In this document: piece by piece, positions 11,313 through 32,955 of the stretch
Position numbering within the stretch: position 1 is the first letter of the stretch
How the letters are laid out: each line of letters starts with the position of its first letter
From: Candidatus Shapirobacteria bacterium
GTDB taxonomy: Bacteria; Patescibacteriota; Microgenomatia; UBA12405; BS750m-G30
Length of the DNA stretch: 64,000 bases
Direction of reading: 5' to 3'
NCBI GenBank assembly: GCA_043817235.1
Contig: JBDRHA010000007.1
Span: 73,212-137,211 of the forward strand
The notes under the pieces: model-generated
Told to the model about the DNA's origin: nothing
Databases searched by the model: none
What the model saw: only the letters and a program-made list of their open reading frames with translations
Position numbers and translations under genes: made by a program

Positions 11313-11313
11313 G

Positions 11314-18448: not shown

Positions 18449-19453
18449 GGCAAGCCAGATTACTGCTCCAGAGACAAGCGGAATAAGGAGATTATCATTG
18501 ATCTTTTTCCCCCGTATTTTGGGCTCACTGTATTCTAAGATGGAAGTGGCGGCTGCCCCGGTGAGGGCAATGGGCAAAGAAATAAATTGCAAAGATACCA
18601 AAGCTGTAGCAAAAAGGGCGGCTAAGCTGGCCTCTATTCTTTTCTTTTTAGAATTAAAATAAAATCCCACTAAAGCATTAACCGAGTCGCCGACCGCTAA
18701 ATTGACAATGGCTGCTTGGGCGATATTTTGAGGAAAAAGAAGAAAGGCCGCAAAACAACTGGCTGTAAATAGGAAACAGCCTTCACCTAAAAAAGGCCGG
18801 GTTTGATCGCGCTCAAAAAAGATAATTAAATTCCTAATTTTTTGCGGCAGCCAAATAGTTGAAGCGAGAGTGATAATAGCCCAGACCAAAAAAAGGACGA
18901 AAAATAATGTTTTATCCAAAATTTGATATTCAATTAAATAAACTAAGGCAAATCCATAGAAAAGATGAACAATTTTTCGGCGCAGATTGCTGGCGTGCGA
19001 AATTTTTTGAACAATTTTTTGCTCGTGGATAATAAAAAAGACCCAAAATATCAGGGTGGCAATTGCAAATCCGCCAATTAAGTCCTGGAAATAATGAAGA
19101 CCCAGATGGGCGCGGGAGAAAGCGATAAGAAAAAGAAAAGCAAAGCCGATCCAGGAGAGGGTAGGTTTTAAAAAAGCCAAGGACCAGGCAAAAAAAGTAG
19201 CTAAAGCAGTATGCAAAGAAGGAAAGGAAAATCCGGAAGGAATATTGGTTTGAACGCCTAAAATGGCCGGATTTTCGACAAAGGGGCGAGAAATGGCGGT
19301 AATTTTTTTAAGAATTTCCACCAGAAAGGTAGTGGCAATTAAAGAGGGGACCAGAAATTTGAAGAATATTTTTCGTTTCTGATAAAAAGAAAAAACTAAA
19401 GGAAATAAAACGAGCGAAACAATCAGCAAATTAGAATTTAAGAATTCAATCAT
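18434..19453 (-). CDS. PAP2-family lipid phosphatase fused to a CTP-transferase/dolichol-kinase-like membrane domain
   Basis: The PAP2 motifs are KITAISRPF, SFPSLHT and FSRAHLGLHYFQD. The C-terminal half has a CdsA/DolK-like GD..A..G motif (LAVGDSVNALVGFYF). Confidence 0.55.
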   Translation of the reverse strand: MIEFLNSNLLIVSLVLFPLVFSFYQKRKIFFKFLVPSLIATTFLVEILKKITAISRPFVENPAILGVQTNIPSGFSFPSLHTALATFFAWSLAFLKPTLSWIGFAFLFLIAFSRAHLGLHYFQDLIGGFAIATLIFWVFFIIHEQKIVQKISHASNLRRKIVHLFYGFALVYLIEYQILDKTLFFVLFLVWAIITLASTIWLPQKIRNLIIFFERDQTRPFLGEGCFLFTASCFAAFLLFPQNIAQAAIVNLAVGDSVNALVGFYFNSKKKRIEASLAALFATALVSLQFISLPIALTGAAATSILEYSEPKIRGKKINDNLLIPLVSGAVIWLALNLA

Positions 19454-20129
19454 TTTTGATCTTTACTTTACTCGCCCGCCAGCGGGCAATTTCTTGATGA
19501 TTGCCTGACAAAAGAACCTTAGGCACTTTCCAATCCATAAAATTTTCCGGACGTGTGTAATGAGGAAATTCAAGAATTTTTCCCGCCGCTTCTTTTCTGT
19601 TAGCCCATTTTTTCATTGCCGGAGAAAACGATTCGATTTCTGAAGCTCCTTCTTTTTCCAAGACTCCGGGCAAAAGTCGAGAAATAGCGTCAATTAAAAC
19701 TAAAGCCGGCAATTCTCCACCGGACAAAACATAATTGCCAATAGATATTTCCTTGTCTATTAGGTGTTTTCTAATCCGTTCGTCAATGCCTTCATAATGG
19801 CCGCAAAGAAGAACTAGATGCTTTTCTTTAGATAAATTACTGGCCTTTTTTTGGTTAAATATTTTTCCTTTGGGAGAAAGAAAAATCACTTGAGAATTTT
19901 TCTTTTTTAGTTTTCTTAAAGCATTATAGACGGGCTCAATTCTCAGAATCATTCCTGGGCCGCCGCCGTAAGCAGTGTCATCCACGGTTCCTCGCTTATC
20001 TATTCCCCAGTCTCTTAAATTATGTGCCTTAACTTTTAAAACACCCACTTTTCGGGCTTTTTTAATCATGCTCCAGTCAAAAAAAGAGTCTAAGAATTCT
20101 GGGAAAAGAGTCAAAACATCAACTTTCAT
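19446..20129 (-). CDS. trmD: tRNA (guanine37-N1)-methyltransferase
   Basis: The protein reads MKVDVLTLFPEF... RGTVDDTAYGGGPGMILRIEP, matching the TrmD SPOUT fold motifs. Confidence 0.9.
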   Translation of the reverse strand: MKVDVLTLFPEFLDSFFDWSMIKKARKVGVLKVKAHNLRDWGIDKRGTVDDTAYGGGPGMILRIEPVYNALRKLKKKNSQVIFLSPKGKIFNQKKASNLSKEKHLVLLCGHYEGIDERIRKHLIDKEISIGNYVLSGGELPALVLIDAISRLLPGVLEKEGASEIESFSPAMKKWANRKEAAGKILEFPHYTRPENFMDWKVPKVLLSGNHQEIARWRASKVKIKND

Positions 20130-20133
20130 AAAC

Positions 20134-20949
20134 TTATTTTAATGGACTTTTAATATTTTTAAGCTTTGGATTTGTCACCTGTGTATACCGTTGAGTTGTT
20201 CTGATATTTTGGTGCCCGAGAAGCTCCTGAACGTAGCGGACATCTACACCGTTTTCCAGTAAATGAGTAGCAAAAGAGTGCCTAAGCGAATGAAAAGTTG
20301 CGTTCTTTTTTATGTTTGAAGCGTGAAGCGATTTTTCAAAAATTTTCTGAGCTGTTCTTGTGGTTAGTTTTCCGCCTCGCTCGCTGGCAAAAACAAGATC
20401 ATTTTTTGATTTTCCCGCAATCAGATTCCTAAGGTGGTTTGTTAATTTTTTTGGTAATACGCTGATGCGGTCTTTTTGTCCTTTTGCGTGCTTGATATGA
20501 AGAATCATTTCTCCTAAATCCAAATCTTGGATTTTCAAAGCAATAACTTCGCTTACTCGCAAACCTGCTCCATACGCAAGCGATAAAAGAAGCTTATGTT
20601 TTGTATTTGTCAGAGTTTGCAAAATCTTTTCAATCTCGACTCGCGATAGCACCACCGGCAAACTTTTGGGCTTTTTTGCTGAGCGTATTTTAATTTTCTG
20701 TGGATTTTTCACTATATTGCGGTAGTAATATTTGATTGCGTTTAACAACAAATTTCGAGTTTGGAGGGAGACTTTTTTTTGTTCACAATGATGTAAGAAA
20801 TTTCTGATGTTTTCCTGATCAAGCTCTTCAAAATTATCTTTCTTGAAGGTGAAATATTCCTGCAAACTATAAAGATAGCTTTTTATGGTCTTTGGACTGT
20901 AATTGAGAATTTTTAACTCCCGTTTGGTTTTTTCAAGTTGCTCTTGCAT
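20134..20949 (-). CDS. XerC/XerD-like tyrosine site-specific recombinase (short, 271 aa)
   Basis: The catalytic R..H-R-Y region is present (GLRVSEVIALK, HSLRHSFATHLLENGVDVRYVQELLGH, TTQRYTQV). Confidence 0.85.
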   Translation of the reverse strand: MQEQLEKTKRELKILNYSPKTIKSYLYSLQEYFTFKKDNFEELDQENIRNFLHHCEQKKVSLQTRNLLLNAIKYYYRNIVKNPQKIKIRSAKKPKSLPVVLSRVEIEKILQTLTNTKHKLLLSLAYGAGLRVSEVIALKIQDLDLGEMILHIKHAKGQKDRISVLPKKLTNHLRNLIAGKSKNDLVFASERGGKLTTRTAQKIFEKSLHASNIKKNATFHSLRHSFATHLLENGVDVRYVQELLGHQNIRTTQRYTQVTNPKLKNIKSPLK

Positions 20950-21109
20950 AATTAGTAGATCTTAGATAATATTGTCTTAATTTTAATGTGTTTGAGGAAA
21001 GATTATCATAACTTCACATAACATACAAATTATGACTTGAATTATGAAAACACTTCGTATAAAAACGAGTTATATGTAATTTGAGTCAGGAACATAAAAA
21101 AATAATGTA

Positions 21110-21125
21110 GGGGCAAAAATTTATA
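21110..21125 (+). repeat. GGGGCAAAAATTTATA motif, copy 1 (right-hand arm of an inverted-repeat pair bracketing gene 21149..22045)
   Basis: An exact copy recurs at 22282-22297, and its reverse complement AAATTTTTGCCCCTT lies at about 22053-22067 and 23391-23405. Each copy sits 8-25 nt upstream of an ATG and contains a -10-like TATA(C/T)(T/A). Confidence 0.6.
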
Positions 21126-21148
21126 TAGATTGCTAATTCATCAATATT

Positions 21149-22045
21149 ATGGACAAAAAAATCTTAAATCACTACTTACAATTTGGCACATTTACTAATC
21201 CTGGTTGCTATAAAGAATTTCTTCAAAATCTTCCAGATGATGTTAAAGAACTGGGCAACTTAATCAGTCATCAAATCATTCATCGCGTTACTCTCAAAGA
21301 AGGCAACACAAAAGCCAATAGAGATTTGCGTTACGGCGATATGAAAAAGCATCCTTGGCATAGATTAAGATGTGAGGATGATGTGTTGCCTACTGCGGTT
21401 TCAATGATTGCAGAATTATTAAGATTTGATGACCGAGGGTTTTTGCCCGACAGAAAAGTTGAAAATAAAATTGTTGTCACTTGTCGTTTTGTGGCAATAC
21501 TTATGGCATCTATATTGAAATCAAAAAATATTCCTTGCCGAGTGAGGTCTGGATTTGCGCCCTATTTCAATAAATATAGCGGTGACCACTGGATTAATCA
21601 GTATTGGGACAGTAAAAAAGAAAAGTGGATCACCTTTGACGCAGATGGATTTTTTGATAAGTCAATTGGGTTTGACCAATATGATATGCCTGAAAATAAA
21701 TTTGATTGGGCGGCAAATACTTGGCTTGGAATAAGAAACAAAAAATTAGATGCCAACAATTTTAGAAATGCGGACGGTTCTGTCGGGCTTATGCCAGTTC
21801 TTTGGGCAATATTTTACGATTTTCATAGTTTGATGAACAACGAAATTCTTTATAATCAAATGCCCAGTTATATTTATTTCAAATTTGATAAATTAACTGA
21901 AAAAGATTTTGAAGAAATTGATGAATTAGCCAAATTGATGTTAGAACCAGATAAAAACTTTGATGAATTAGTCAAAATCTGGAATACAAAGAAGAAATTC
22001 AGAATTTTGAATGGTCCACTTATTGGTGATAGCGATCACTTTTAG
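21149..22045 (+). CDS. Transglutaminase-like cysteine protease superfamily protein
   Basis: A Cys-His-Asp arrangement is present (VVTCRFVAILMASILKSKNIPCRVRSGF ... GDHWINQYWD ... WITFDADG). Confidence 0.55.
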   Translation: MDKKILNHYLQFGTFTNPGCYKEFLQNLPDDVKELGNLISHQIIHRVTLKEGNTKANRDLRYGDMKKHPWHRLRCEDDVLPTAVSMIAELLRFDDRGFLPDRKVENKIVVTCRFVAILMASILKSKNIPCRVRSGFAPYFNKYSGDHWINQYWDSKKEKWITFDADGFFDKSIGFDQYDMPENKFDWAANTWLGIRNKKLDANNFRNADGSVGLMPVLWAIFYDFHSLMNNEILYNQMPSYIYFKFDKLTEKDFEEIDELAKLMLEPDKNFDELVKIWNTKKKFRILNGPLIGDSDHF

Positions 22046-22305
22046 TGGAAATAAATTTTTGCCCCTTTATTTAATAAAATGTTTCTGACTCAAACTCACT
22101 CCGCTACGCTCCGTGCCACGTTGCGCTCTCCCTACACTTCGTTTCGGTCGGGACATATAACAAAGATTATGAGGAAAATGGCTCGGCTCGCCATTTTCCC
22201 AAATTTGCTCCACTTCGTTCCGCAAACTTCTCATAATCCTGACGTTAAGTGAAATAATTTTTAGTGACGATATCTTTTTAAGGGGCAAAAATTTATACTA
22301 CAAAT
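22046..22305. repeat. About 250-bp intergenic element bounded by a 15-bp inverted repeat (AAATTTTTGCCCCTT ... AAGGGGCAAAAATTT), MITE-like
   Basis: The terminal inverted repeats are at 22053-22067 and 22282-22297. The internal GC-rich block (ACGCTCCGTGCCACGTTGCGCTCTCC...CGTTTCGGTCGGGACATAT) resembles blocks in other intergenic regions of this array. Confidence 0.45.
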
Positions 22306-23391
22306 ATGACAAAGTTTATTCTCGGGTTACAACTGTGTGAACAATTTTATAAAGAGGTCGTGAAAGTTCTCATCGAAACAGAGTTTCATGGGCTCAAATA
22401 CTCTGCTGGATTGATTGGGTCTGGTTCGGAGGTTTTTGGTTTTGATACAGAGCGTTCGACCGATCATCATTGGGGTCCGCGTGTCCTGCTTTTTCTTTCT
22501 TCAAAAGACATCAGTAGGAAGAAACAAATTTCTGATTACCTCAGCAACAATCTTCCTCCAACATTTCATGGTTACTCAACACATTTTGGCAATCCTGACG
22601 AAATAGGTGTACAGCTTCTATCCGAGGCAAAAGCAGGACAACCGATCAATCATCGTGTGGAGATTTACACAATTGAATCATTTTTCAAAGAGTATCTGTT
22701 GATTGATCCCAATGATGATCTCACTGCTTCCGATTGGCTCACTCTATCCGAACAGAAACTCCGAACCATACGGAGCGGCAAAATTTTTTACGACCAACTT
22801 GGATTAAAGGCAGTTCAAAATAAACTCCATTATTATCCCAAAGATGTTTGGTTTTATATGCTTGCGTCTGAATGGATGAAAATAAGCCAAGAAGAACCGT
22901 TTGTTGGTCGTACTGGAGATGTGGGTGATGAATTAGGATCAAAAATTATTGCCGCTCGACTTGTGCAATCAATCATGAAACTCTGTTTCTCAATGGAGCA
23001 AGAATACGCACCATACAGCAAGTGGTTTGGTACGGCTTTTTCACGCTTAAAGTGTGCTAAAAAACTTTCGCCGATTTTGGATAAAGTCCTTTCCGCCAAA
23101 GATTGGAAAGAGCGTGAAAAATACCTTTCTCAAGCCTACAAAGTTGTTGCTCAAATGCACAATGATTTGAAACTCACCAAACCACTTGCAACAGAAGTAT
23201 CGAGCTTTCACGACCGACCTTATTTAGTGATTCACGGAGATGTCTTTGCAAACGAACTCAAGAAGAAAATCAAAGACCCTGCTGTCAAAAAGATTTCCGC
23301 TGATATTGGCTCCGTGAATCAATTCTCCAACACAGTTGATCTGCTAGAAAACGATAAACTGATGAAGAAGCTAAAAATTCTATACCGATAA
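22306..23391 (+). CDS. Nucleotidyltransferase-fold protein (minimal NTase N-domain plus DUF4037-like C-domain)
   Basis: The N-terminus carries the hG[GS]...D.E NTase signature (LIGSGSEVFGFDTERSTDHHW). Confidence 0.5.
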   Translation: MTKFILGLQLCEQFYKEVVKVLIETEFHGLKYSAGLIGSGSEVFGFDTERSTDHHWGPRVLLFLSSKDISRKKQISDYLSNNLPPTFHGYSTHFGNPDEIGVQLLSEAKAGQPINHRVEIYTIESFFKEYLLIDPNDDLTASDWLTLSEQKLRTIRSGKIFYDQLGLKAVQNKLHYYPKDVWFYMLASEWMKISQEEPFVGRTGDVGDELGSKIIAARLVQSIMKLCFSMEQEYAPYSKWFGTAFSRLKCAKKLSPILDKVLSAKDWKEREKYLSQAYKVVAQMHNDLKLTKPLATEVSSFHDRPYLVIHGDVFANELKKKIKDPAVKKISADIGSVNQFSNTVDLLENDKLMKKLKILYR

Positions 23392-23766
23392 TTTTTTGCC
23401 CCTTTTTATGGAAGTCACTAAAAATTACTCTCGCCAGCCCTTCGGGACGTTGCACTCTGGCTCGGGCTTCGCCTCACTTAACACAGAATATGCGGTTCTC
23501 TGCATTGCATTTGTTCTCCCAAATCTCTTGACTGATGTAAAATACAGCATATCAGTCGGCGTGACTTCGCCCATACTGGAACGTTATATGTATCTAGCGG
23601 ATATTCTCAACCGCTACCAATACACGGCAGAAGAGTTTGGCAATGCTTACCTCAAGAAAATGAATCACAATCTTAAGAGGGATTATTCAAAAAGCCAAAC
23701 GCAAATAATCGAGTTTTACTTCTTCGTTCCTCGAGCTCATTCAATTAGTTTTTGAGATAATCAATT

Positions 23767-24342
23767 ATGAAATTAGACACTTTTATCATTGGCAATCTAG
23801 AGAAAAACTTTTTGAGAAAGAGAAATAACGCAATGAAAAAATCAAAGGCCGATTTAGTCATGATTTTAAATACGGATATTGAAGTTTCCAATGTCAAGCC
23901 AACACTCAAACTCTTCGAGAAAGACGATAAGCTTTTTGCCGTCACTTTCTCGCCAGAATCTAGCCAATCGAAAATTGTAAAAAACGCTGAATTTGCCAAC
24001 GGTGGTTCTTCAATCTACAGAAGAAAAATTTGGAATAAGATTGGAGGAATAGACTTAATGTATGAGCCTTACTGGTGGGACGACGTTGATTACTCTTACC
24101 AAGCCAAGAAAATGGGTTACAAAATACTTGCTGATGGTAGAGTCAAAGTTGTCAAGAAAAGTGAGCTAGGCACAGACATTTTAGGTCGAAAACCTTATTC
24201 CAAATTTATTTATTACAGGAACCACCTGTTATTTCTCAGAAAAAACAAACCCAAAGAATTTCTCAAAAAATTTAAAAAACCTCTTTATCTTCCTCTACTG
24301 TTACTTGTCGAACTTAGGTTTAGAAAATTTCATAATTGCTAA
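23767..24342 (+). pseudogene. N-terminally truncated GT2 glycosyltransferase fragment
   Basis: The ORF begins inside the GT2 fold (..ADLVMILNTDIEV.. ; ..YWWDDVDYSYQAKKMGYKI..) and lacks the SYN / DGS.D N-terminal region. It is preceded by repeat-element sequence rather than an intact 5' end. Confidence 0.5.
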
Positions 24343-24373
24343 TTTATTTTAATTGACATTCGCTCTGCGGTAC

Positions 24374-24392
24374 TCGACCCCACTGCGTTTTC
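24374..24392 (+). repeat. TCGACCCCACTGCGTTTTC, a conserved GC-rich intergenic block (second copy at 26767-26785, degenerate relatives in other intergenic regions)
   Basis: An exact 19-mer is shared by the intergenic regions downstream of genes 23767 and 26197. Related CCCCA(Y)TGC(R)TT(Y)TC cores occur at about 25958-25972 and about 27538-27556. Confidence 0.6.
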
Positions 24393-24535
24393 AGCCGGAG
24401 AGCAGGGGAACGATTTTACTCTCCTTCTTCAGCTCGCACAACACGGCATGTAGGGTTAATGCCTCAGCTCGGCATTCAACCCAAATTATTCTGTCTTGTT
24501 GTAAAATAGTTTAACAAGCCAGTCTAACTTCCTAC

Positions 24536-24557
24536 ATACCGAAACGTTGTCGGAAAT
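24536..24557 (+). repeat. ATACCGAAACGTTGTCGGAAAT 22-mer, copy 1 (copies at 26131-26152 and, slightly diverged, 27588-27609), each preceded by a hairpin
   Basis: The sequence is identical at 24536 and 26131; 27588 reads ATACCGAAGCGTTATCGGAAAT. Each copy lies 45-160 nt upstream of the next + strand gene (24720, 26197, 27699). Hairpins sit upstream of each copy: CTTGTTGTAAAATAGTTTAACAAG (24495-24518), CATGTT..AACATG plus GTCCGCTTAACTACGGAC (26085-26130), and CGCATAACATAGTATATGCG at 27588. Confidence 0.65.
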
Positions 24558-24719
24558 ACGTTTTTAATTTTAAGATTTTCTGTTCCGCTTTTTATTAAGA
24601 AATAAAAACATTTTAGGGGGATAGAACAAAAGAAGAGTAAAACTTGAAAATCATTTCACCTGCTGTATAATACTGCCAACCTATTATTTTCTGCCCCTTC
24701 GATTTTTACTACAACTATT

Positions 24720-25838
24720 ATGACGCGGGAAATAGAGCCACCTAAAACATTTGAAACTGTCCCCCGACCCAGACCAGACACTTGGACACAGCTCTTTCAA
24801 GACGAAAAAAAATTAGCAGAATTAATGGGGGCATTTAAAGAAGTTACGGGAATTGATTTTTGCAACACTCCGATAAAAGCCTTAGGGAATAGAGTTATAG
24901 TGCCAGAATCGTTGATTACAAGACCAGAAGATATTAGGGGCGGGCCACTTACTGCCCTAGGTATTGTTAGACACATGCTTCTGGGCCATATAGTCATCTC
25001 TCCTTTTGATCCAGAACTGCTTGGTGCCAATGGCTACGATTTTAGAGTGTCTTGTCTACAAGGATATGCAAGAAGAGAAATAATAGAAGGTCTTAAAGAC
25101 AGAATCGGAAAAACCGGTCAAGTAGTTATCTATCATGAAGGATCTCAACCTAGAAGTGAATTCATTATTAATCCTTATAATCCAGATGACGTTGACCACA
25201 TCTGGCATTTAGTCAACGGAACCCAAGTTCAAGACATAAAAAGACAATCTCAAGATGATTGGGCCACTATCATGGGTGAAAATAGAATGGACGCTAGTGA
25301 TTGCCCGATAGATTTAAGAGGTGCACATCCCTTAAATCGTGCCTTTCTTATTCCGGGCCATCAAACTATCTTGTTGCGAACAGAAGAGGTAATTGGAGGA
25401 ATTGGTTGTGTGGTTCCAAAAATGTTGGGAAAATCTTCGAGCAGAAGGTGGGATTTTACTGTATGTGGAGATGCTCAACTTGGTAATTTAAATTGGATCG
25501 GTCATTGGGCCATTGAAGTTCAAAATATTACTGAATACACAAAATTCCTCGTTCACCAAACCCCTCTCGGACAGATGGAATTCACTCTAACAGCTGAAGA
25601 CCTACCCTCAAACTCTTCTTACGCTGGACAATATGCCAGCATCCAAGCAGCAGGAAACAATCTTCAAACTCTTTATTCTAATGTAGAACGGTATAGACAG
25701 AGATATCAAATAAGTGACTTATTACCCAGACCTCTTAGGTCTCCCGGCCCGATAGTAGAAGGGTTGACCCGTGAACAAGCATTCCGCGCTTGGGATAAAG
25801 CAGCAGAGATGTTTGGTACTCCACCAAGACAAAATTAA
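24720..25838 (+). CDS. Hypothetical protein with dCTP-deaminase/dUTPase-superfamily-like N-terminal region; GC-richer than surrounding genes
   Basis: The segment ..GHIVISPFDPELLGANGYDFRV.. resembles the Dcd-type beta-barrel motif. Its codon composition is visibly GC-enriched. Confidence 0.35.
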   Translation: MTREIEPPKTFETVPRPRPDTWTQLFQDEKKLAELMGAFKEVTGIDFCNTPIKALGNRVIVPESLITRPEDIRGGPLTALGIVRHMLLGHIVISPFDPELLGANGYDFRVSCLQGYARREIIEGLKDRIGKTGQVVIYHEGSQPRSEFIINPYNPDDVDHIWHLVNGTQVQDIKRQSQDDWATIMGENRMDASDCPIDLRGAHPLNRAFLIPGHQTILLRTEEVIGGIGCVVPKMLGKSSSRRWDFTVCGDAQLGNLNWIGHWAIEVQNITEYTKFLVHQTPLGQMEFTLTAEDLPSNSSYAGQYASIQAAGNNLQTLYSNVERYRQRYQISDLLPRPLRSPGPIVEGLTREQAFRAWDKAAEMFGTPPRQN

Positions 25839-26196
25839 AAGCAACTCTTTCAGCTCAAAAAATTCACCCCTCACCTCTCTTTTTTTCGCCGAATTTAAAA
25901 CAAGAGAGAAATAAAAAGCGGAACAGAAAATAGAGAATAAAGAACAAAAACGTACTCCTCGCTTCGCTCGCCCCATTGCATTCTCAACTTTTTTCTTTTA
26001 AAAAAATATAGCAAATAGTTTCGGGTCACCTAACACAGTATGTCCGGCTCATACGGTTGCACCTTTTCGCCCTAATTAAGCAGACATGTTGTAAAATTAA
26101 ACAGCCTAACATGTCCGCTTAACTACGGACATACCGAAACGTTGTCGGAAATCGAAAAACATTTAAAATACATCTATTAAAAATTAAGAAAATTTT

Positions 26197-26742
26197 ATGG
26201 CAGTAAAAATAACTTATTTTGTCCATGGCACCACCACCGATAATCAAAAGGAAATCTCTTCTGGTTGGTCTGATGTTGAGCTTTCTGATTTAGGAGTTAA
26301 ACAATCTATAGATCTCAAAGATCAAATTAAAGATAAAAAGCTTGACGTTGTTTTTTGTTCTGATCTCAAGCGAGCAGTTGATTCCGCCAAGCTTACTTTT
26401 GATGGTGTAGTCAAAATTATCCAGGATAAAAGATTGAGAGAATGTAACTATGGTGTACATAATGCTGGTCTATCTAGTATTGTCGAACCTCTCCAAGAAA
26501 AAAGCATCGTCAAAAGATTTCCTGAAGGCGAAAGTTATGAAGATGTTAAAAAAAGAATTCAAGATTTTCTTAATTTTCTAAAACAAAACTATGATGGCAA
26601 GCATGTTGCCATTGTCGCCCACAAAGCGCCCCAACTTGCTCTGGAAGTTCTTTTGAAAGGCAAGACCTGGGAACAAGCTTTTGCAGACGATTGGCGAAAG
26701 AAAAAAGCTTGGCAACCTGGCTGGGATTTTGTTTTAGAGTAA
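26197..26742 (+). CDS. Histidine phosphatase superfamily (phosphoglycerate-mutase-like) protein
   Basis: An RHG-like N-terminal motif (ITYFVHGTTTDN), ..VFCSDLKRAVDSA.. and a later HKAP histidine region are present. Confidence 0.65.
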   Translation: MAVKITYFVHGTTTDNQKEISSGWSDVELSDLGVKQSIDLKDQIKDKKLDVVFCSDLKRAVDSAKLTFDGVVKIIQDKRLRECNYGVHNAGLSSIVEPLQEKSIVKRFPEGESYEDVKKRIQDFLNFLKQNYDGKHVAIVAHKAPQLALEVLLKGKTWEQAFADDWRKKKAWQPGWDFVLE

Positions 26743-26906
26743 ATGTTTTTCGACTTCTCCTTTCAGTCGACCCCACTGCGTTTTCGTCGTTTTGTTTTTT
26801 AAATTTTAACAAACATCCTTAGGTCGTCTAACGCAATATATAGAGCTCGGTTCATTGTCCTCCCTCAAGCCCATATCGCTCATGCTTTTGATATAATACT
26901 TTAAAG

Positions 26907-27515
26907 ATGGCAAAATTACTCTTAACATCTACGGGGCTTGCAAACCAAAATATCACGGATCAGTTTTTACAAATAATAGATAAGCCGGGTTCTCAAATCA
27001 AAATTATATTTGTTCCCGCCGCCGCAAGAAACGAAGAAGAATTAAAATATATTGCCGAATCAAAAAAAGAACTTCTTGACTTAGGCATTTTTGAAGATAA
27101 CATTAAAACTTTGAATTTAGATAATCATGTTTTATTTAAAGAAGTCGAAAATTTTGATGTTATTTATGTATGCGGTGGAAATACTTTTTATCTGCTGAAA
27201 AAAGTTAGAGAAGTTGGCTTTGATAAGGTAATTATTGAATTTACAAAAACTGATAAACTTTACTTTGGAGTTAGTGCGGGAAGTATTTTAGTTTGCCCAA
27301 ATATTGATATTGCAAGTCCCTTTGACGAGAATGATATCAATTTAACTGATTTAACTGGATTAAATTTAACTGATGTGATTGTTTCCCCTCATTATAAAGA
27401 TGAAGAGAAGATGGTTATTGATAATTTCAAGAAAAAGTCACAGTATAAAGTTGTGCCTTTAACTGATGAGCAGGCATTGTTAGTTGTCGACGGGGAAACA
27501 AAAACAGTAGAATAG
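26907..27515 (+). CDS. Peptidase S51 (dipeptidase E / cyanophycinase-like) family protein
   Basis: It has a class-I glutamine-amidotransferase-like fold with a nucleophile-elbow serine (YFGVSAGSILVCPNI). Confidence 0.6.
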   Translation: MAKLLLTSTGLANQNITDQFLQIIDKPGSQIKIIFVPAAARNEEELKYIAESKKELLDLGIFEDNIKTLNLDNHVLFKEVENFDVIYVCGGNTFYLLKKVREVGFDKVIIEFTKTDKLYFGVSAGSILVCPNIDIASPFDENDINLTDLTGLNLTDVIVSPHYKDEEKMVIDNFKKKSQYKVVPLTDEQALLVVDGETKTVE

Positions 27516-27698
27516 CGCGCGTATTTGGAATTCAAGGGGATGCTGCGTTTTCGCATAACATAGTATATGCGGCTACGAACATCGCATATACCGAAGCGTT
27601 ATCGGAAATATTTTTTGTGATAAAATAAATCAAATTAATGCGAGGCGAGGTGCTTAAGTGATTGGTTCAGCCGGAGAGAGATAAAAAGTAAATTTATA

Positions 27699-28676
27699 AT
27701 GGGTGATTATAAAAAAATGAAGAAGGTTTTAATTTGTGGTGCCGGGGGTTTTATTGGCTCGCATCTTGCCAAGCTTCTAAAGAAAGAGGGCTGCTGGGTG
27801 CGGGGAGTGGATATTAAAAAGCCGGAATATAGCAAGAGTGCAGCGGATGAGTTTCTTCTTCTTGATCTTCGGGAAAGAAAAAATTGCCAAAAAGCATTAA
27901 CAAAAAGAGGTGGTTTTGACGAGGTCTATCAGTTAGCGGCTGATCGAGGGGGAGTAGGGTATATGATTCCCGGAGAGTGCGATATGATGGAAAATAATGC
28001 CTTAATGAATATTTATATGATTTCGGAGGCGGTTAAATTGAAAAAAAAGCCTAAATATTTCTTTTCCTCGTCCGTTTGTGTTTATAAAGATATGAAAATT
28101 GGGACGCCAATGATCTTGGAAAAAGATGTTTATCCTGCCTATCCTGACAATGAATATGGCTGGGAAAAACTATATACGGAGAGAATGCTTACTGTTTTTG
28201 GCAAGCGCTACAAAATGCCCATTAGGATCGCTCGATTTCATACTACTTATGGCCCGGAAGCTAATTGGGAGGGGGGACGAGAAAAGGCGGCGGATGCTTT
28301 ATGCCGGAAAGCGGCTTTGGCCAAAGATGGCGACTATTTGGAAGTTTGGGGGGATGGCAAAACGATCAGAGTTTTTACTTATATTGATGACCTACTTTTC
28401 GGAATTCGCGCTTTGATGAAGTCTTCTATCCCTGAGCCAACAAATGTTGGCAGTGATGAATATGTTACTGTTAATCAGTTGGCTAAAACAGTCATTGAAG
28501 CTTCCGGCAAGAACCTAAAGATTAAAAATATTAAAGGGCCGATTGGTGTGCAAAGCAGAAATTTTAGCAATAAACAGATTTATTCTACGGGTTGGCGGCC
28601 AAAAGTATCTTTAAAAGAGGGCATTGCGATTCACTACCAATGGGTCAAAGGAGAGGTAGAGAAAAAATATAAGTAA
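27699..28676 (+). CDS. NAD-dependent sugar epimerase/dehydratase (SDR extended family; GDP-mannose 3,5-epimerase-like)
   Basis: A Rossmann motif (VLICGAGGFIGSHL), the SxnYxxxK active site (SSVCVY...YGWEKLYTERM) are present. The start could be ATG 27699 or 27717. Confidence 0.8.
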   Translation: MGDYKKMKKVLICGAGGFIGSHLAKLLKKEGCWVRGVDIKKPEYSKSAADEFLLLDLRERKNCQKALTKRGGFDEVYQLAADRGGVGYMIPGECDMMENNALMNIYMISEAVKLKKKPKYFFSSSVCVYKDMKIGTPMILEKDVYPAYPDNEYGWEKLYTERMLTVFGKRYKMPIRIARFHTTYGPEANWEGGREKAADALCRKAALAKDGDYLEVWGDGKTIRVFTYIDDLLFGIRALMKSSIPEPTNVGSDEYVTVNQLAKTVIEASGKNLKIKNIKGPIGVQSRNFSNKQIYSTGWRPKVSLKEGIAIHYQWVKGEVEKKYK

Positions 28677-28687
28677 TTAATGTTTAA

Positions 28688-30157
28688 TTAATTACGAAAA
28701 CAGATTTTATCTACGTCCAGAATGCCGTCTCCTACAGCCTCAAGACAAAAGGTGTGGGCTATGTCCGAAAAGTTGTAGTGTCTGATTACCTGCCACTGCA
28801 TAGTTGTTGAATAGTTGCTTATAGTATCAATTAATTTTCCGTCCAAGTAAACTTCAGACGTGCCTCGATTTTTGAAAGTGATAGTGTACCAATCAACAGA
28901 TGATCCAGTAAAGGGAAGGCAGGCTTTGGACCCGGCTGTATTGGTAAACCGCCAACTGCCTCCGCTGGCCTGATCCAGAGTACCCAACAGCCAGTTGCCG
29001 CTAAAATCTACTTGTTCAGCCGTATTTTCGTAACAAACTTCGGCACTGACATCGTCGGTCGGAGTGGGTGTTGCGGTTGGTATGGAAGTAGGCGTAGGTG
29101 TAACAATTACAGAATCAGCTAGGCAAAATTTGTCTACATCAACATAGCCATTTCCAACCACTTCCACACAAAAAATATGGCTGGCTTGGCTAAAAGAATA
29201 ATGCTTGAGCACCTGCCACTGCATGGCCGGCGAATAATTATTAACTGTGTCTATAAGCTGACTGTCAAGATAAACTTTGGCTGTACCCCGGTTTTTGTAA
29301 GCGACGGTGTACCAGTCAAGCCAAGAGCCGCTGAAATTCACACAAGACCGGTTTCCGGTTTGGTTGGTAAAACGCCAACTGCCGTTACTGGCATTTTCGT
29401 GTGTTCCTGTAAACCAATTGCCGTCCCAAGTAATTTGAACATCATTGTCTTCATAGCAGGAGGCTGTATTGGGATTGGGAGTAGGAGTAGGTGTCAGGCA
29501 ATCCAAACAATTGTTTACTATTTTGACTGTTGCCTCAAAGCTCAGGGCAATTCTTTTATATCCGGAAGCATTGGGGTGTAAAGCATCGCCAAACAGGATC
29601 GGGTTGCCGCCTTTAGCGTAATCGCCGGCGTCCAAAAGCAGTCCGGCCCAGGGATTTTGGGTGTAGTAATCTTCGCGCGCGATATTTAACCGCAGTTCAT
29701 CCACTAGAGGTTTCATGCACAGCGTGTCGCATTTTGGATCGCCCAAATTGGGAGTAACAGCGCTGAGGATTACTTTTGCGCCATACGCTTTAGCTTTATT
29801 AACAATATTCTGGATTTCTTGGCGCACGGCCGCTGGTTTTTGATTTTTACGCATATCATTAACGCCAAGCATGATGATAACAATATCCGGTTTATCTTGA
29901 GCCAGCCAAGCATCTGTGTTAGCTAGGACTTGGTCAGCTGTCCACCCTGATTGACCGCGATTAATTACTTTGTAGCTGGAGCCAAGTAATGACTGGAGTT
30001 GGCTGGGGTAAGATTTATTGGCTGGCGCTCCAGCACCGTAAGTAATGCTATCGCCTAAGCAGGCAATAACAGTTTGATTGATAGCCAAAACAGGTGTTTT
30101 TTGCCAAAATAAAAATACCAGCAAGCCCAATGTAATATGTTTTAAGAATTTAATCAT
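28688..30157 (-). CDS. Secreted SGNH/GDSL hydrolase with two tandem ~130-aa beta-sandwich (CBM-like) repeats separated by PT-rich linkers
   Basis: A signal peptide and the GDSL blocks are present (ACLGDSITYG, MLGVNDM, GDALHPN). The ~130-aa repeat, SCYEDND..WRFTNQTG..DWYTVAYKNRGTAKVYLD and AEVCYENTAE..WRFTNTAG..DWYTITFKNRGTSEVYLD, occurs twice. Confidence 0.75.
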   Translation of the reverse strand: MIKFLKHITLGLLVFLFWQKTPVLAINQTVIACLGDSITYGAGAPANKSYPSQLQSLLGSSYKVINRGQSGWTADQVLANTDAWLAQDKPDIVIIMLGVNDMRKNQKPAAVRQEIQNIVNKAKAYGAKVILSAVTPNLGDPKCDTLCMKPLVDELRLNIAREDYYTQNPWAGLLLDAGDYAKGGNPILFGDALHPNASGYKRIALSFEATVKIVNNCLDCLTPTPTPNPNTASCYEDNDVQITWDGNWFTGTHENASNGSWRFTNQTGNRSCVNFSGSWLDWYTVAYKNRGTAKVYLDSQLIDTVNNYSPAMQWQVLKHYSFSQASHIFCVEVVGNGYVDVDKFCLADSVIVTPTPTSIPTATPTPTDDVSAEVCYENTAEQVDFSGNWLLGTLDQASGGSWRFTNTAGSKACLPFTGSSVDWYTITFKNRGTSEVYLDGKLIDTISNYSTTMQWQVIRHYNFSDIAHTFCLEAVGDGILDVDKICFRN

Positions 30158-30219
30158 AACTTATAGAGATTTTATCAAGATCTGGATAATTTGTCTATAA
30201 ATAGAAATTATTGCCAAGT

Positions 30220-30250
30220 TCTTTAGATTTGTATTTTCTTGGTATAATTA
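30220..30250 (+). promoter_or_regulatory. Putative sigma70-like promoter for tRNA-Pro (-10 TATAAT at about 30243-30248)
   Basis: A perfect TATAAT lies 9 nt upstream of the tRNA 5' end, with a TTG-containing -35-like segment upstream. Confidence 0.4.
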
Positions 30251-30257
30251 ATTACAC

Positions 30258-30335
30258 CGGAGCGTAGCGCAGTTGGATTAACGCGCCCCGATCGGGTCGG
30301 GGAGATCGCGGGTTCGAGTCCCGCCGCTCCGACCA
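30258..30335 (+). tRNA. tRNA-Pro (anticodon CGG), genomically encoded CCA
   Basis: Manual cloverleaf folding gives an acceptor stem CGGAGCG/CGCTCCG, an anticodon stem CCCCG/CGGGG with loop AUCGGGU (U33, anticodon CGG, G37), a T-arm GCGGG-TTCGAGT-CCCGC, and a 3' ACCA. Confidence 0.8.
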
Positions 30336-30588
30336 TACAGGACAAAGCCCTTGTCCATAAAGTCTTTGAAGGGTTGATTTAGCTGATATGAAGCCACTTT
30401 CTTATCTTTCAGAGTAAAGTTCAAGAAGATTTTGGAGATAATCTCATCCTTACCTTGCATAGGCTTTGTTTTCCTCAAGACATCGGGCAATTGTTTGAAA
30501 AGTTCGACAAACTCAGAATACTTGTAAATAAAGGTCTCGTTAGCTTTGAGAGCCTGTTTAATCTTAGTAATTTTATCTTCAATATCTT

Positions 30589-32025
30589 TTAATTCCTTGT
30601 CCTTGGCCATAAGGTCTTTCTTAAAGATAGTCCTAAACTCCGATTCTTTCTCCTCTCCTCAAGTATTATGTTTTTAATATCTTTAATTCTTTTGTCAACG
30701 CCTCTTTTTTGCGCCTGTAGAGAGCGCAAGAGACTATCTAACTCCTTTTTCTTTTCTCTACCAACCTTCTTCATTTCTTTGACATAATGGTCGTAAATAT
30801 CCTTTGAAGCGAAATTGAATTTATCCAAAAAGTCATAAACAAAATCTAAAACAACTCTAGCCCTGACATTATGCTTAACCTTCCTGCCTGATTTTTGCTT
30901 GATTGGCTTGCACCCTTCCATGTCACATCTGTAAAAGTAATACCACTTTTTGTCATCTTTAGTTTTCTTTGAGGTTAAGCCTGAGCTCATGGGTTGGCCA
31001 CAATGTCCACAAATAACTTTACCCCTGAGAAAATCTGCTTTTGTAGCACCTAATCTTGTCCCCCTAATCTTTGACTTAAAGACTTTGGTTATGTCACTTA
31101 ATTTGTTGACACTTAAAAACTCTTCAACAGTAACTATCGGAACATAGTCGTAGACCTCAACAAGGTTAGCGACATGCTTGCCTTGGCCATACTGCATAAC
31201 ACCAGCATAGAAAGTATCCTTGAACATCTCTGATAGCCTTTTAACATTCATTTCAAATGGCTTGTGTGTAATCTTGCCTATACCATAAGCTCTGTGATAA
31301 TTCTGGTCTGTTAAATACTCTGAAATCTCGGCAAGAGTCTTGTTTTCAAGGCGCATTAACCAAGCCTTCTTGATTAAATGGAAGTTATTACCATCTGGTC
31401 TTAGTAGTTGGTTTCTGTCTCGATAGTACCCATGCTTGGCGGTAGTAAGCCACTTACCTTCTTCAATACTTCTTCTAATGCCTCTAGTGACAACATCGCT
31501 AAGCTGGTCTGAGTATTGTTTAGAAAGGACAAAAGCAATCCCTAGCAACATCTTGCCAGAGGCATTGTTATCAAAAGTAAAATTGACAAATTGAAGGTCT
31601 TTGATAATTCCCTTATCAAGTAGGTCGATAATTTCGCCAGCATCTCGCATGTTGCGACTAAGACGGTCTGGGTGCCAACAAATAACACCATCAAACTTAC
31701 CACCATTAAGGTCATCAATCATTTTTCTGAACCGAGGTCTTATGTTTGGTTCTTTGGCGCTTTCGCTTTCTCTAATTGGCCTGCCGACTACGGTTAGGTT
31801 CCGATTCTCAGCCATCTGTTCACAATCGGCTATCTGGTCTCCAAGGCTCCGAATCTGCCTTTCCTCACTTTCAGTGCTTTTTCTGGCATAGATAACATAA
31901 CGGAATTGAGTAGGGTCTTTAACCTCGCTCTCACCTCTAATGCTTTTAAGAAGATTGGCAAGGTCTGCTGGTGTATGAGCAGGTTTATCATTCATGTTCG
32001 TAATTCTCTTAATTCTCATGCTCAA
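30589..32025 (-). CDS. Large serine recombinase (phage-integrase type)
   Basis: The resolvase catalytic domain has the YARKSTESEERQ serine motif. A recombinase domain and a zinc-ribbon (CGHCGQPMSS...YYFYRCDMEGC) follow, with a C-terminal coiled coil. The protein may continue in another frame (see findings). Confidence 0.85.
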   Translation of the reverse strand: MSMRIKRITNMNDKPAHTPADLANLLKSIRGESEVKDPTQFRYVIYARKSTESEERQIRSLGDQIADCEQMAENRNLTVVGRPIRESESAKEPNIRPRFRKMIDDLNGGKFDGVICWHPDRLSRNMRDAGEIIDLLDKGIIKDLQFVNFTFDNNASGKMLLGIAFVLSKQYSDQLSDVVTRGIRRSIEEGKWLTTAKHGYYRDRNQLLRPDGNNFHLIKKAWLMRLENKTLAEISEYLTDQNYHRAYGIGKITHKPFEMNVKRLSEMFKDTFYAGVMQYGQGKHVANLVEVYDYVPIVTVEEFLSVNKLSDITKVFKSKIRGTRLGATKADFLRGKVICGHCGQPMSSGLTSKKTKDDKKWYYFYRCDMEGCKPIKQKSGRKVKHNVRARVVLDFVYDFLDKFNFASKDIYDHYVKEMKKVGREKKKELDSLLRSLQAQKRGVDKRIKDIKNIILEERRKNRSLGLSLRKTLWPRTRN

Positions 32026-32313
32026 AAAAACAAAAGAGCTTAGTATCAGTATAACTCAAAAACTACTTGATGAACAAAGCCAACAACGCTAACCGATAGT
32101 AATCCTATAATGGTTGACTAAAATGATGTTATTTGATATATTACTAGGGTAAATTGGCCTTACTCAGTAAAGCTTAATTGTTCTTTAACATATCCCTATA
32201 GCAGAGAGAATTGTGTGTATTGACAGCCCACTAAATGCTGTGGAGCAACAGTCTATACTCACTGACTCTTTGTTATTTTTCGGTTCAATCCAAAACCACA
32301 CAGGAGGTGTGAA

Positions 32314-32562
32314 ATGGAAGGTCAAGTAATGCTTGATGCCGTGTCTGTCACTGTTGGAGTTGTTACTCTTGTGTTGATTCTGGCCCATATGTTCACCAAG
32401 AACAAAAACAATACCCTCGCGACGATGAAGGTGGTTTTTATGGTGGTAATGGCCATTCTCAACGTACTCGATGCAGACATTTTCTTCACAGTCCTCTGGA
32501 CAATTCTGGCTTGTCTCAATATCGTGTTGATTGCCATACGCATCAACACCAAAAGCCAGTAG
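32314..32562 (+). CDS. Small two-TM membrane protein (hypothetical)
   Basis: A strong SD (ACAGGAGGTG) lies 6 nt before the ATG, and the product has two hydrophobic helices. This + ORF is preferred over the overlapping minus-strand ORF 32185..32652, which has no RBS and is Cys/His-rich with low complexity. Confidence 0.45.
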   Translation: MEGQVMLDAVSVTVGVVTLVLILAHMFTKNKNNTLATMKVVFMVVMAILNVLDADIFFTVLWTILACLNIVLIAIRINTKSQ

Positions 32563-32955
32563 GCCGAACAGTAACACAAAGGAGCAAGGAGTAGGTTCAC
32601 ACCTACACGATACACTTAACTGTATATCGTCATCACTTGCTCCATTTTTCATACAAAAAATTAGAAAATAAAGAATTGAAGAAAAGTGTCATAATATGCG
32701 GGTAGAAAATTGACACAGACTCTTGCTTCAAAAGAGTACCTCTAAGAGTTCTTAACCTTAAATACAGCAAAACTAAAAGAGTTAGACAGGATTTAGCAAA
32801 ATTGACCCTCTCAAAGCACATCCCAACATATGAAAATGCCTCATATGATGAGGGAAATTCAAAGACAGTTAACGTGGTTCAACTACATAAAAATCTAAAC
32901 CCTGGCATACCCCCATACTATGGTTCGATGACTTTTAGGCTAATACAAAAGAAGG

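Follow-up and report, generated by a model that had tools for sequence, protein, structure and literature searches.

A putative integron-like gene-cassette array beside an Xer/IntI-lineage tyrosine recombinase in Candidatus Shapirobacteria

Organization of the locus

The window, the whole stretch of 64,000 nucleotides analysed from an uncultivated CPR bacterium, contains a tyrosine recombinase gene beside trmD, with five plus-strand gene units past the recombinase-proximal site and a covarying hairpin element between units (Table 1). A sequence-only reading had described unrelated single genes and repeat-built spacers by a tyrosine recombinase; this is confirmed by gene calls, Pfam matches and seven spacers of 164-377 nt (199, 260, about 375, 377, 358, 164, and 183 nt). 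Composition varies from gene to gene, as proposed, with GC of 31-45% and GC3 of 0.25-0.43 for the region's genes. The repeat-bearing array ends at 27609 rather than at tRNA-Pro, where its right boundary had been placed. The tRNA-Pro adjoins a separate serine-recombinase region and is not the array boundary.

The 22-nt inverted repeat reported earlier around cassette 4 is present and perfect, and the cassette has its own promoter-like site (24644-24671, 11/12 match). The dCTP-deaminase-like ORFan of this cassette had been called GC-rich, but its GC content is 41.7%; it has a single homolog (81%) among 5.8e9 proteins, and the neighbours of that homolog differ. The ORF of cassette 3 has weak Pfam matches only, to GT2/GT21 (E 0.03-0.08). 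An ORF at 23396-23755 is probably spurious and overlaps hairpin element E3.

Table 1. Coordinates of genes, cassettes, and recombination-related features in the window (CM, covariance model)
Feature	Position	Strand	Details
trmD	19446-20129	-	recombinase gene immediately upstream, 4 nt apart
xerD-like tyrosine recombinase gene	20134-20949	-	271 aa
Conserved recombinase-proximal region (attI-like)	20950-21068	.	two tandem dif-like ATAA-N7/8-TTAT motifs
Proximal R' core/tail, start of cassette 1	21069-21080	+	GTTATATGTAAT
Left inverted-repeat arm, cassette 1	21080-21124	+	includes AGGGGCAAAAATTTAT; partner 22051-22094
Cassette 1 gene, transglutaminase-like	21149-22045	+	Pfam
Hairpin element S2	22151-22255	+	R'' 22153-22161; R' GTTAAGTGAAAT 22244-22255; CM R1 75.5 bits, E 3e-17
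Cassette 2 gene, DUF4037 protein	22306-23391	+	Pfam; arms 22280-22296 / 23388-23404
Hairpin element E3	23472-23593	+	R'' TCACTTAAC 23474-23482; R' 23583-23593; CM 43.3 bits, E 1.5e-8
Cassette 3, truncated glycosyltransferase-like ORF	23767-24342	+	arms 23757-23774 / 24326-24343
Hairpin element A	24432-24557	+	R'' 24434-24442; R' GTTGTCGGAAAT 24546-24557; optional 5' box 24378-24392; CM 93.5 bits
Cassette 4	24575-25931	+	dCTP-deaminase-like ORFan 24720-25838; arms 24575-24596 / 25910-25931
Hairpin element B	26024-26152	+	R'' 26026-26034; R' 26141-26152; 5' box 25971-25985; CM 81.8 bits
Cassette 5	26148-26757	+	histidine phosphatase 26197-26742 (Pfam); arms 26148-26165 / 26740-26757
Truncated element C	26767-26900	+	5' box 26771-26785; R'' 26824-26832; 5' stem half only; read from sequence, with a repeat-motif match
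Peptidase S51 gene	26907-27515		truncated element C runs into gene
Mini hairpin element D, last of the array	27549-27609	+	R'' 27551-27559; R' GTTATCGGAAAT 27598-27609; CM 50.1 bits, E 2e-10
Epimerase gene	27699-28676		beyond array
SGNH hydrolase gene	28688-30157	-	beyond array
tRNA-Pro	30258-30335		beyond array

Hairpin elements between cassettes

What had been read as several spacer modules is one hairpin site together with cassette-specific inverted-repeat arms. The element consists of R'' (..TC-N4-AAC), a 10-bp stem, a variable core, GAAAC, and R' (GTT-N4-GAAAT); AAC...GTT cores of the R''/R' type, which the earlier search for canonical attC cores had missed, are present. The 30-190 nt that separate R'' from R' form a covarying hairpin: pairing over the 15 modelled base pairs reaches 89.8%, versus 24-39% with partners slid, and compensatory changes occur at 9 of 10 stem pairs. 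The element core contains a conserved unpaired CCCAWATT, and an optional 5' box is present in 15 of 35 elements; both features are left unexplained by the cassette model. Element C has no covariance-model match and lacks its 3' half. Among the shorter repeats, the 22-mer ATACCGAAACGTTGTCGGAAAT, proposed to occur in three copies, has two exact copies and a third with 2 mismatches (chance expectation 0.01), while GGGGCAAAAATTT occurs four times in alternating orientation and CCCCAYTGCRTTYTC has three exact occurrences.

The repeat motifs and covariance-model matches are absent outside the array region within the 64-kb window. With elements called by covariance model at E<1e-9, no matches were detected on recombinase downstream flanks, in the remaining 54 kb of the window, or in 14 other CPR loci. 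Element arrays lie beside a homologous recombinase in 9 of 10 independent loci (picked non-randomly, by length of the carrying contig), where they without exception occupy the divergent side and read in the array sense. In the window and these nine loci the elements stay within the array next to the recombinase, rather than recurring genome-wide as promoter or terminator repeats.

Structured RNAs of an accessory-gene region, serving in UTRs, processing, or termination, would give the hairpins a different meaning, in which the 5'/3' complementarity closes the mRNA and the recombinase is a bystander. The element's three-way junction, with its unpaired but conserved nucleotides, is typical of a functional RNA, start codons follow the element at a distance of about 45-160 nt, and the arms resemble terminator-stem halves. 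In contrast, no Rfam family matches the elements, and the asymmetries in wobble pairs and folding energy both point to the strand antisense to genes. The non-Watson-Crick cells comprise 25 C.A/A.C (bottom-strand G.T) versus 8 top-strand G.T (p 0.0046), and the attC-like bottom-strand folding envisaged earlier is the more stable in 27 of 31 elements (mean -2.8 kcal/mol, p 3e-5), with related copies counted as independent in both statistics. Fixed polarity, occurrence solely beside the recombinase, the end of platform conservation exactly at the R' core, and whole-unit differences between otherwise identical strains with junctions at GTT also argue against such RNAs, which are a highly improbable explanation.

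The recombinase and its proximal site

The recombinase contains Pfam Phage_integrase and SAM-like N domains with the catalytic R-K-H-R-H-Y motifs. It scores 215.6 bits against the NCBIfam integron integrase model TIGR02249 (cut-off 265) and 212.4 bits against the XerA model (cut-off 220); in the PDB, VchIntIA 2a3v matches best, as two segments that leave out residues 184-244. Judged by these matches, the protein is IntI/XerA-like and lacks the IntI-specific I2 insert. The earlier label of XerD-like, not IntI, is refined: the protein is equally close to IntI and Xer and has no IntI insert. That its best matches are the integron integrase model and VchIntIA favours an integron-like platform. The I2 insert defines IntI and reads the extrahelical bases of attC; canonical IntI needs I2 for recognition of folded attC.

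The absence of I2 and the gap of only 4 nt to trmD would also suit a housekeeping Xer that the cassettes merely exploit. Such hijacking, with no dedicated integron, would involve a dif-like duplex proximal site and miniature elements of the IMEX or pdif-module kind that build up there through ordinary duplex recombination, with hairpins that are incidental or only CTX-phage-like. The protein's matches to the XerA, XerC, and XerD models come close to that with IntI, the half-sites R'' (..CGCATAAC) and R' tail (TTATGTGAAAT) look like the XerC and XerD arms of dif, and the proximal region carries ATAA-N7/8-TTAT motifs. Candidate-phyla 'Cand' recombinases have also been treated as Xer-like (Smyshlyaev 2021, PMC8138268). 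However, R'' and R' are separated by the covarying hairpin and not by a central region of 6-8 bp, and there is no GC-skew sign change at the site, which is therefore not obviously a terminus dif. Across many CPR lineages and classes the homologous recombinase keeps 73-83% identity whereas TrmD reaches at most 65%, an uncommon pattern for an ordinary housekeeping gene. Xer/dif hijacking, which we regard as unlikely, differs from an integron-like platform in biochemistry and not in outcome, as capture occurs beside the recombinase either way.

The proximal region, attI-like in the integron-like interpretation favoured here, probably contains the recombinase promoter. Upstream of the recombinase gene, 7 loci share about 135 nt of conserved sequence, and this conservation stops exactly at ..AYAAC in the recombinase sense, the GTT of the array sense at 21069.

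Complementarity of cassette ends

A cassette whose 5' R' complements its own 3' R'' bears the classical signature of circular cassettes. In the window, the reverse complement of the proximal R' is ACATATAAC, the R'' of the next element (22153-22161), and the R'' of E3 exactly complements the R' of S2; end complementarity is thus perfect in cassettes 1 and 2. The same relationship, an R'(n-1) that reverse-complements R''(n) without mismatch across the 6 variable positions, holds for 20 of 32 cassettes, compared with 1.9% of non-cognate pairs (binomial p about 1e-26). Within one element, R' and R'' agree on average at only 3.5 of 6 positions. Complementarity extends into cassette-specific inverted-repeat arms, which lie above the null 99th percentile in 16 of 23 cassettes; the cassette 1 arm has a score of 16, where the null 99th percentile is 11-14.

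Perfect complementarity is found in all eight first cassettes from independent loci versus 12 of 24 later ones (Fisher p 0.014); the first-position cassette of contig L095 is imperfect (4/6). In window cassettes 3-5 the R'/R'' complementarity is missing (2/6 positions). Given this loss, the truncated element C, and a cassette that holds a gene fragment, the distal array may be a fossil. We infer that the window's own array may still be active, with distal cassettes that look degenerate.

Cassette turnover among related strains

Six contigs from a related CPR population share an identical recombinase and 99.94-100% identity over 10,813 nt of downstream flank, and yet their cassette sets and orders differ; the same genes in the same order, the outcome set against gene capture by the earlier reading, were not found. 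In one of the six, L095, the proximal site is exactly where a 3.6-kb Thoeris-like ThsB-TIR/SLATT block has been inserted, and GTTATACGAAAT stands at either junction; the junction position is GAAAC|GTT. One element body carries three different R' tails, each of which travels with the downstream cassette. The window's S2 is homologous to L069:10452-10556 and L083:107-211, where it lies beside different genes. Cassette replacement is seen between the window and L083, which have the platform and an S2-type element in common, with a transglutaminase-like gene in between in the window versus a radical-SAM SPL gene in L083.

Tandem non-autonomous TIR transposons (MITE-like, with a passenger gene) or recombinase-flipped invertible segments (shufflon or inverton) might also produce units bounded, as every unit is here, by 9-nt inverted repeats and longer inverted arms, and transposase genes do occur within some arrays. 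Nevertheless, no target-site duplications are read at cassette 1, the L095 insertion is precisely at the proximal site, and more than 50 cassettes keep one orientation relative to hairpins and recombinase throughout, which inversion or random transposition would not yield. Little credence is given to this explanation.

Comparison with known systems

No description of such a platform was found in the literature searched. As in sedentary chromosomal integrons (IntI, attI, attC), the recombinase gene is divergent from unrelated, same-strand genes that are often ORFans or defence genes, and the proximal site ends at a GTT core. Further similarities are an R''(..AAC)/R'(GTT..) pair with unpaired spacer, inner stem, and variable core between cassettes, entry of new cassettes beside the recombinase, bottom-strand folding bias, ORF-less cassettes, and cassette duplications. 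Unlike in integrons, the recombinase here has no I2 insert, each R box spans 9 bp and includes a free N4 'barcode', and the unpaired spacer is uneven (2/5 nt). Conserved extrahelical bases are not seen in the elements, and their core is often a three-way junction with the conserved CCCAWATT. Complementarity reaches 15-40 nt past the exchange point as the cassette-specific arms, and some cassettes are multi-gene (3.6-8.5 kb) or have their own promoter.

Xer/dif systems and IMEX, such as CTX phage with its ssDNA hairpin integration, share an Xer-like recombinase without I2, dif-arm-like half-sites, a folded hairpin that presents the site, and elements that pile up at one chromosomal site. In contrast, no GC-skew switch coincides with the site here, the cassettes are single genes with no phage or plasmid functions, and the hairpin sites form a conserved family kept between all units. 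In Acinetobacter, pdif modules are likewise small units of one or a few genes that have Xer-type sites at their ends and are exchanged between replicons. While pdif sites are 28-bp duplexes of alternating orientation on plasmids, the sites here are long hairpins of single orientation, chromosomal and beside the recombinase gene.

A model for the platform

The platform would comprise an Xer/IntI-lineage tyrosine recombinase without I2, an attI-like site, and divergent same-strand cassettes that each end in an attC-like hairpin. A cassette may be transiently circular, its site forming one long imperfect palindrome of right arm, R'' (TC-N4-AAC), 2/5-nt unpaired spacer, 10-bp L stem with variable core, R' (GTT-N4-GAAAT), and left arm. 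The folding strand would probably be the bottom strand, antisense to genes as in attC, presented in single-stranded form. The recombinase, as the presumed catalyst, would exchange strands at GAAAC|GTT, with insertion resulting from exchange with the proximal site and excision from exchange between two array sites. Once inserted, the cassette would have the R' tail and left arm at its 5' end and the remainder of the site at its 3' end. With the exchange point at the 5' edge of R', as in integrons, the first bases of a cassette would complement its own R''.

Sequence comparison shows the element structure, the exclusive and polar association with the recombinase, the GTT junction, end complementarity, and strain-level cassette turnover in a related CPR population. 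The earlier suggestion of a non-canonical integron-like capture array is supported by the recombinase-confined elements and by cassette turnover, and 20134-27609 is probably an integron-like gene-cassette (gene-capture) platform, though not a canonical integron. As flank-identical contigs differ only in array genes, the system behaves like an integron assembled from non-canonical parts.

Genes and repeats of the array

The genes and repeats that the sequence-only reading had named are present as described in Pfam searches and repeat counts, and the differences in composition that it saw from gene to gene are borne out by GC and GC3 values computed per gene. The open reading frame taken for a truncated GT2 fragment exists, while its identity as a GT2 protein is weakly supported by Pfam. 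The source organism belongs to the CPR bacteria, Microgenomates/Shapirobacteria type. The 22-mer occurs in three copies in the window, two exact and one with two mismatches, compared with 0.01 expected. There are four copies of GGGGCAAAAATTT in alternating orientation and three of the CCCCAYTGCRTTYTC box, and a perfect 22-nt inverted repeat brackets the dCTP-deaminase-like (DCD-like) gene. Promoter and terminator scans show no enrichment over shuffles (31 versus 26.3; 12 versus 7.6), and hence the spacer modules are not ordinary promoters or terminators; the named repeats are confined to the array region within the 64-kb window rather than being spread genome-wide.

The DCD-like cassette protein is nearly an ORFan, with one homolog, 81% identical, in a word-indexed search of 5.8 billion proteins; the neighbor genes of this homolog differ from those in the window. 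Rfam searches of the window at gathering and permissive thresholds returned tRNA-Pro only. A 16-nt match between 22098-22113 and the 5′ end of tRNA-Pro is within chance expectation.

Coordinates of features in the window and, where a contig is named, in the comparison contigs (L numbers)
Feature	Position	Strand	Remarks
Tyrosine recombinase	20134-20949	-	Pfam; directly upstream of trmD
Array-side genes, in order: transglutaminase-like, DUF4037, DCD-like, histidine phosphatase, peptidase S51, epimerase		+	Pfam
DCD-like cassette protein	24720-25838	+	372 aa
SGNH hydrolase		convergent	Pfam
tRNA-Pro	30258-30335
Hairpin element, covariance model matches (n = 5)	22151-22255, 23472-23593, 24432-24557, 26024-26152, 27549-27609
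Hairpin element, sixth copy	~26767-26900		truncated
Optional 5′ box	22113-22135, 23440-23470, 24378-24392, 25971-25985, 26771-26785, 27537-27556		..GGGAC-GTTGCACT / CCCCACTGCGTTTTC
ATTCACCCCT module	25866-25880; L074 1650 and 2411; L082 ~6620; L088 1710 and 3085
Empty cassettes	L069 13953-14031 and 12258-12305; L072 ~113-160; L092 2180-2226; L087 upstream of xer
Y1 transposase gene, IS200-like	5636-6304	-	Pfam Y1_Tnp, E 3e-9
39-nt inverted repeat	5596-5634 / 6324-6362		flanks Y1 transposase gene
Large serine recombinase	30589-32025	-	Resolvase, Recombinase, Zn-ribbon domains
110-aa ORF	30278-30610
~190-nt tandem repeats	L082 10869-11188; another copy 1353-1544		copy lies 9 kb away
tmRNA/tRNA-like 3′ end	L080 ~11270-11330	reverse	..GGTGGAGGTGGAGGGAGTTGAACCC

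The hairpin element

The vocabulary of the spacers reduces to two components, one structured element per spacer and a pair of gene-specific inverted arms. The element consists, in order, of the outer core box R″ (..TC-N4-AAC), 2 nt, a stem of ~10 bp, a core, the second half of the stem, GAAAC, and the outer core box R′ (GTT-N4-GAAAT). The core is variable (11-170 nt) and often comprises two hairpins linked by a conserved CCCAWATT, and the 22-mer is the 3′ end of the element. A covariance model built from 15 copies has no match in the rest of the 64-kb window beyond the five listed. A metagenome scan with the 3′ end detected the same element in other low-GC contigs, among them L069, which holds another array of unrelated small genes; the 20-mer of the element is absent from viral contigs.

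The structure of the element is strongly supported: 89.8% of cells in the modelled pairs are paired, compared with 24-39% when the partners are slid, and nine of the ten stem pairs show compensatory changes. The element has the features of an integron attC site, namely an inverted R″/R′ pair, an unpaired spacer, an L stem and a variable core. Its AAC and GTT are near-invariant, although the sequence-only reading saw no canonical attC R″/R′ cores; the spacing and the flanking consensus differ from those of the canonical attC (RYYYAAC / GTTRRRY). The non-Watson-Crick stem cells are mostly C.A/A.C, equivalent to G.T wobbles of the bottom strand (25, versus 8 G.T on the top strand; p 0.0046), and with DNA parameters 27 of 31 elements fold more stably as the bottom strand (p 3e-5), both p-values being optimistic because the element copies are related. 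This strand bias speaks against a role as sense-strand RNA and parallels attC sites, in which it is the folded bottom strand that recombines. No conserved extrahelical bases were identified in the elements.

The inverted arms lie on either side of each ORF, and both the GGGGCAAAAATTT copies and the 22-nt inverted-repeat pair are such arms. Across the window and nine further array loci, the arms score above the 99th percentile of non-cognate pairs in 16 of 23 units. The GC-rich 5′ box is an optional module present in 15 of 35 elements, located 20-100 nt ahead of R″; it is often the loop of a small covarying hairpin and resembles a second R′-like GTTG core. Another recurrent module, beginning with ATTCACCCCT, comes after the stop codon in several cassette genes from different arrays. 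The DCD cassette flank at first seemed circularly permuted between the window and L088; this was rejected, as the shared segment is this 3′ module. Some units are ORF-less 'empty cassettes', in which the perfect complement R″ and a mini hairpin come within 9-18 nt after an R′ tail. An identical unit of this kind recurs at several places within an array, and it lies directly at the proximal site, the attI-like region between the recombinase gene and the start of the array, in L087 and L092.

The recombinase

The window encodes a single tyrosine recombinase. Its top NCBIfam match is the integron integrase TIGR02249 at 215.6 bits (cut-off 265), in two stretches, and the score for archaeal XerA is almost equal (212.4; cut-off 220), followed by XerC (185.7; cut-off 335) and XerD (180.2; cut-off 330). 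The closest solved relative is Vibrio IntI4 (VchIntIA, 2a3v), with an alignment in two pieces that skips the IntI-specific insert: only 18 query residues correspond to residues 184-244 of 2a3v. The recombinase is therefore not an IntI, and it does not have the I2 helix of the integron enzyme. In earlier work the clade appears only under the name 'Cand', as a Xer-related group (PMC8138268).

More than 5,500 homologs at E<=1e-40 suggest that the system may be widespread. The top 120 homolog clusters are 73-83% identical and their labels span many CPR classes, and the recombinase with its upstream site is ~74-75% identical at the DNA level among the homolog clusters P0002-P0120. TrmD of the same window has nothing above 65% identity. 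Behind the high identity of the recombinase across CPR classes lies either extreme constraint or horizontal transfer of the platform as a whole. The closest relatives in a phage collection and a plasmid collection are <=35% and <=40% identical, respectively.

The proximal site and the cassette ends

In the seven loci compared, conservation extends over ~135 nt upstream of the recombinase gene and stops exactly at ..AYAAC in the recombinase sense, which is GTT in the array sense (window 21069). Each unit starts with GTT-N4-GA(AAT) and ends with the TC-N4′-AAC of the next element. In 20 of 32 units, one end is the exact reverse complement of the other across all six variable positions, versus 1.9% of non-cognate pairs, and R′ matches the R″ of its own element at a mean of only 3.5 of 6 positions. 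In the window, GTTATATGT is complementary to ACATATAAC at the ends of cassette 1, and GTTAAGTGA to TCACTTAAC at the ends of cassette 2. Complementarity of the ends is the argument that first defined the boundaries of integron cassettes. As in integrons, where crossover is at G|TT, an attI-like site adjoins the recombinase gene and the start of a cassette complements its own R″. The complementarity of cognate ends argues that each unit would once have been circular, with R″ paired to R′, and opened at the 5′ edge of R′; in such a circle the arms would lengthen the palindrome.

Perfect complementarity is found in all eight first-position cassettes, from independent loci, versus 12 of 24 later ones (p 0.014), a difference that fits entry at the proximal site and subsequent decay. 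The distal part of the window array looks old because cassettes 3-5 have only two of six complementary positions, element C (fifth in array order) is truncated and one gene is a fragment. Integron cassettes mostly have no promoter and are driven by a Pc promoter in the platform. A conserved motif, TT(G/A)AAT-N15-(T/C)ATAAA, faces the array just before the GTT and scores below promoter-scan criteria. The DCD cassette, at least, carries a strong promoter-like site of its own.

The main competing view takes the enzyme for a housekeeping Xer recombinase that IMEX-like cassettes have hijacked. The half-sites do look like dif arms and the recombinase gene abuts trmD, but the site does not coincide with a GC-skew switch, the sign of the skew being the same on both sides, and the hairpin is under selection, such that this explanation is considered unlikely. 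Dimer resolution by Xer/dif involves a Xer protein at family threshold and a dif site of 28-30 bp at the terminus, whereas the locus offers dif-like motifs with an unchanged skew sign. The pdif modules consist of inversely oriented 28-bp XerC/XerD sites, in contrast with the hairpins of 60-200 nt in one orientation found here.

Distribution across loci and cassette turnover

The contigs of nine homologous recombinases were compared, giving 10 independent loci with the window. The covariance model matches at E<1e-9 in nine of the ten, always on the divergent side of the recombinase gene and in the same relative orientation, with the first match directly after the first gene or gene block. No match is present on the downstream flanks or in 14 other CPR loci. 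Readings of the array as RNA elements, a transposon or an inversion system fit poorly, and the inversion (shufflon) and TIR-transposon readings are very unlikely given orientation and location. The ends are TIR-like as in a MITE or TIR transposon; no target-site duplication is seen at cassette 1, and the copies are not dispersed.

The genes between elements encode restriction-modification systems, OLD, NACHT and TIR defense proteins, GNAT, NUDIX and HAD enzymes, small alarmone synthetases and many proteins without family assignment, and are almost never common to different arrays. L083 has the platform and an S2-type element in common with the window, with different intervening genes. An apparent array polymorphism between L069 and L072 was discarded, as the break is a contig end inside a repeat. 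A TrmD-based synteny scan of genome contigs gave a nearest relative of 65% identity on a 5.6-kb contig and no useful synteny, and an exact look-up of the window recombinase returned no contig.

Turnover is seen in a related CPR population, in which six contigs from six samples encode an identical recombinase (P0097). The recombinase gene and 10 kb downstream (10,813 nt) are 99.94-100% identical and collinear in all six contigs, whereas the upstream arrays differ. A cassette of 274 aa is first in two contigs, second in a third behind a 3.6-kb ThsB-TIR/SLATT block, and duplicated in a fourth with several cassettes between the copies; other cassettes are at positions 3-4, 6-7 or 11-12. Comparison of the filled and empty site shows the ThsB-TIR/SLATT block to lie precisely at the proximal site, and each of its two junctions carries GTTATACGAAAT. 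One element body occurs with three different R′ tails, and each tail moves with its downstream cassette; therefore, exchange is at GAAAC|GTT. Cassette content thus varies between close relatives, as it does in integrons. These near-identical flanks with differing arrays, rather than the same genes in the same order, agree with the gene-capture array, integron-reminiscent and non-canonical, proposed by the sequence-only reading.

Other elements at the loci

The stretch 5596-6362, with its transposase gene and inverted repeat, constitutes a small mobile element of its own that has no relation to the array. The large serine recombinase gene lies immediately 3′ of tRNA-Pro, and a 110-aa ORF overlaps both the end of this gene and the tRNA. 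Small minus-strand ORFs, one of them weakly AbiEi-like, lie beyond it, and the region 30258-33312 may represent another integrated element at tRNA-Pro; alternatively, it may contain the C-terminus of the recombinase after a frameshift. In two comparison contigs, the sequence downstream of the tyrosine recombinase gene contains ~190-nt tandem repeats (L082) or a 1-kb non-coding stretch with what appears to be a tmRNA/tRNA-like 3′ end (L080).

Implications

As judged from sequence, the array is probably an integron-like cassette platform, which falls outside the formal integron definition because the recombinase has no I2 domain. The defining feature of integrons is IntI with its I2 helix. This helix is regarded as the innovation through which attC sites could recombine in folded, single-stranded form (Escudero et al. 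2020, PMC7790495). A platform of the same logic with an I2-less Xer/IntI-like enzyme bears directly on the origin of integrons and, if true, is a natural test case of whether I2 is really needed for hairpin-site recombination. Detection of integrons based on IntI would miss the platform because the recombinase is without the IntI insert, and a literature search for integrons or Xer cassette arrays in CPR/Patescibacteria yielded no relevant paper.

The balance tilts slightly toward the broader proposal that many CPR (Patescibacteria) lineages carry an undescribed, integron-analogous form of gene capture, with a highly conserved I2-less Xer-type recombinase and long folded hairpin sites. Such a system would be an independent invention of the integron principle or a surviving relative of the Xer-to-IntI transition, and a major route for defense and accessory genes. 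The array reveals a fast-evolving locus of CPR bacteria, with a cargo of restriction-modification, Thoeris-like, OLD and NACHT defense genes and many ORFans. It stands out in genomes that are small elsewhere and that, in the population compared, are clonal across the neighboring 10.8 kb.
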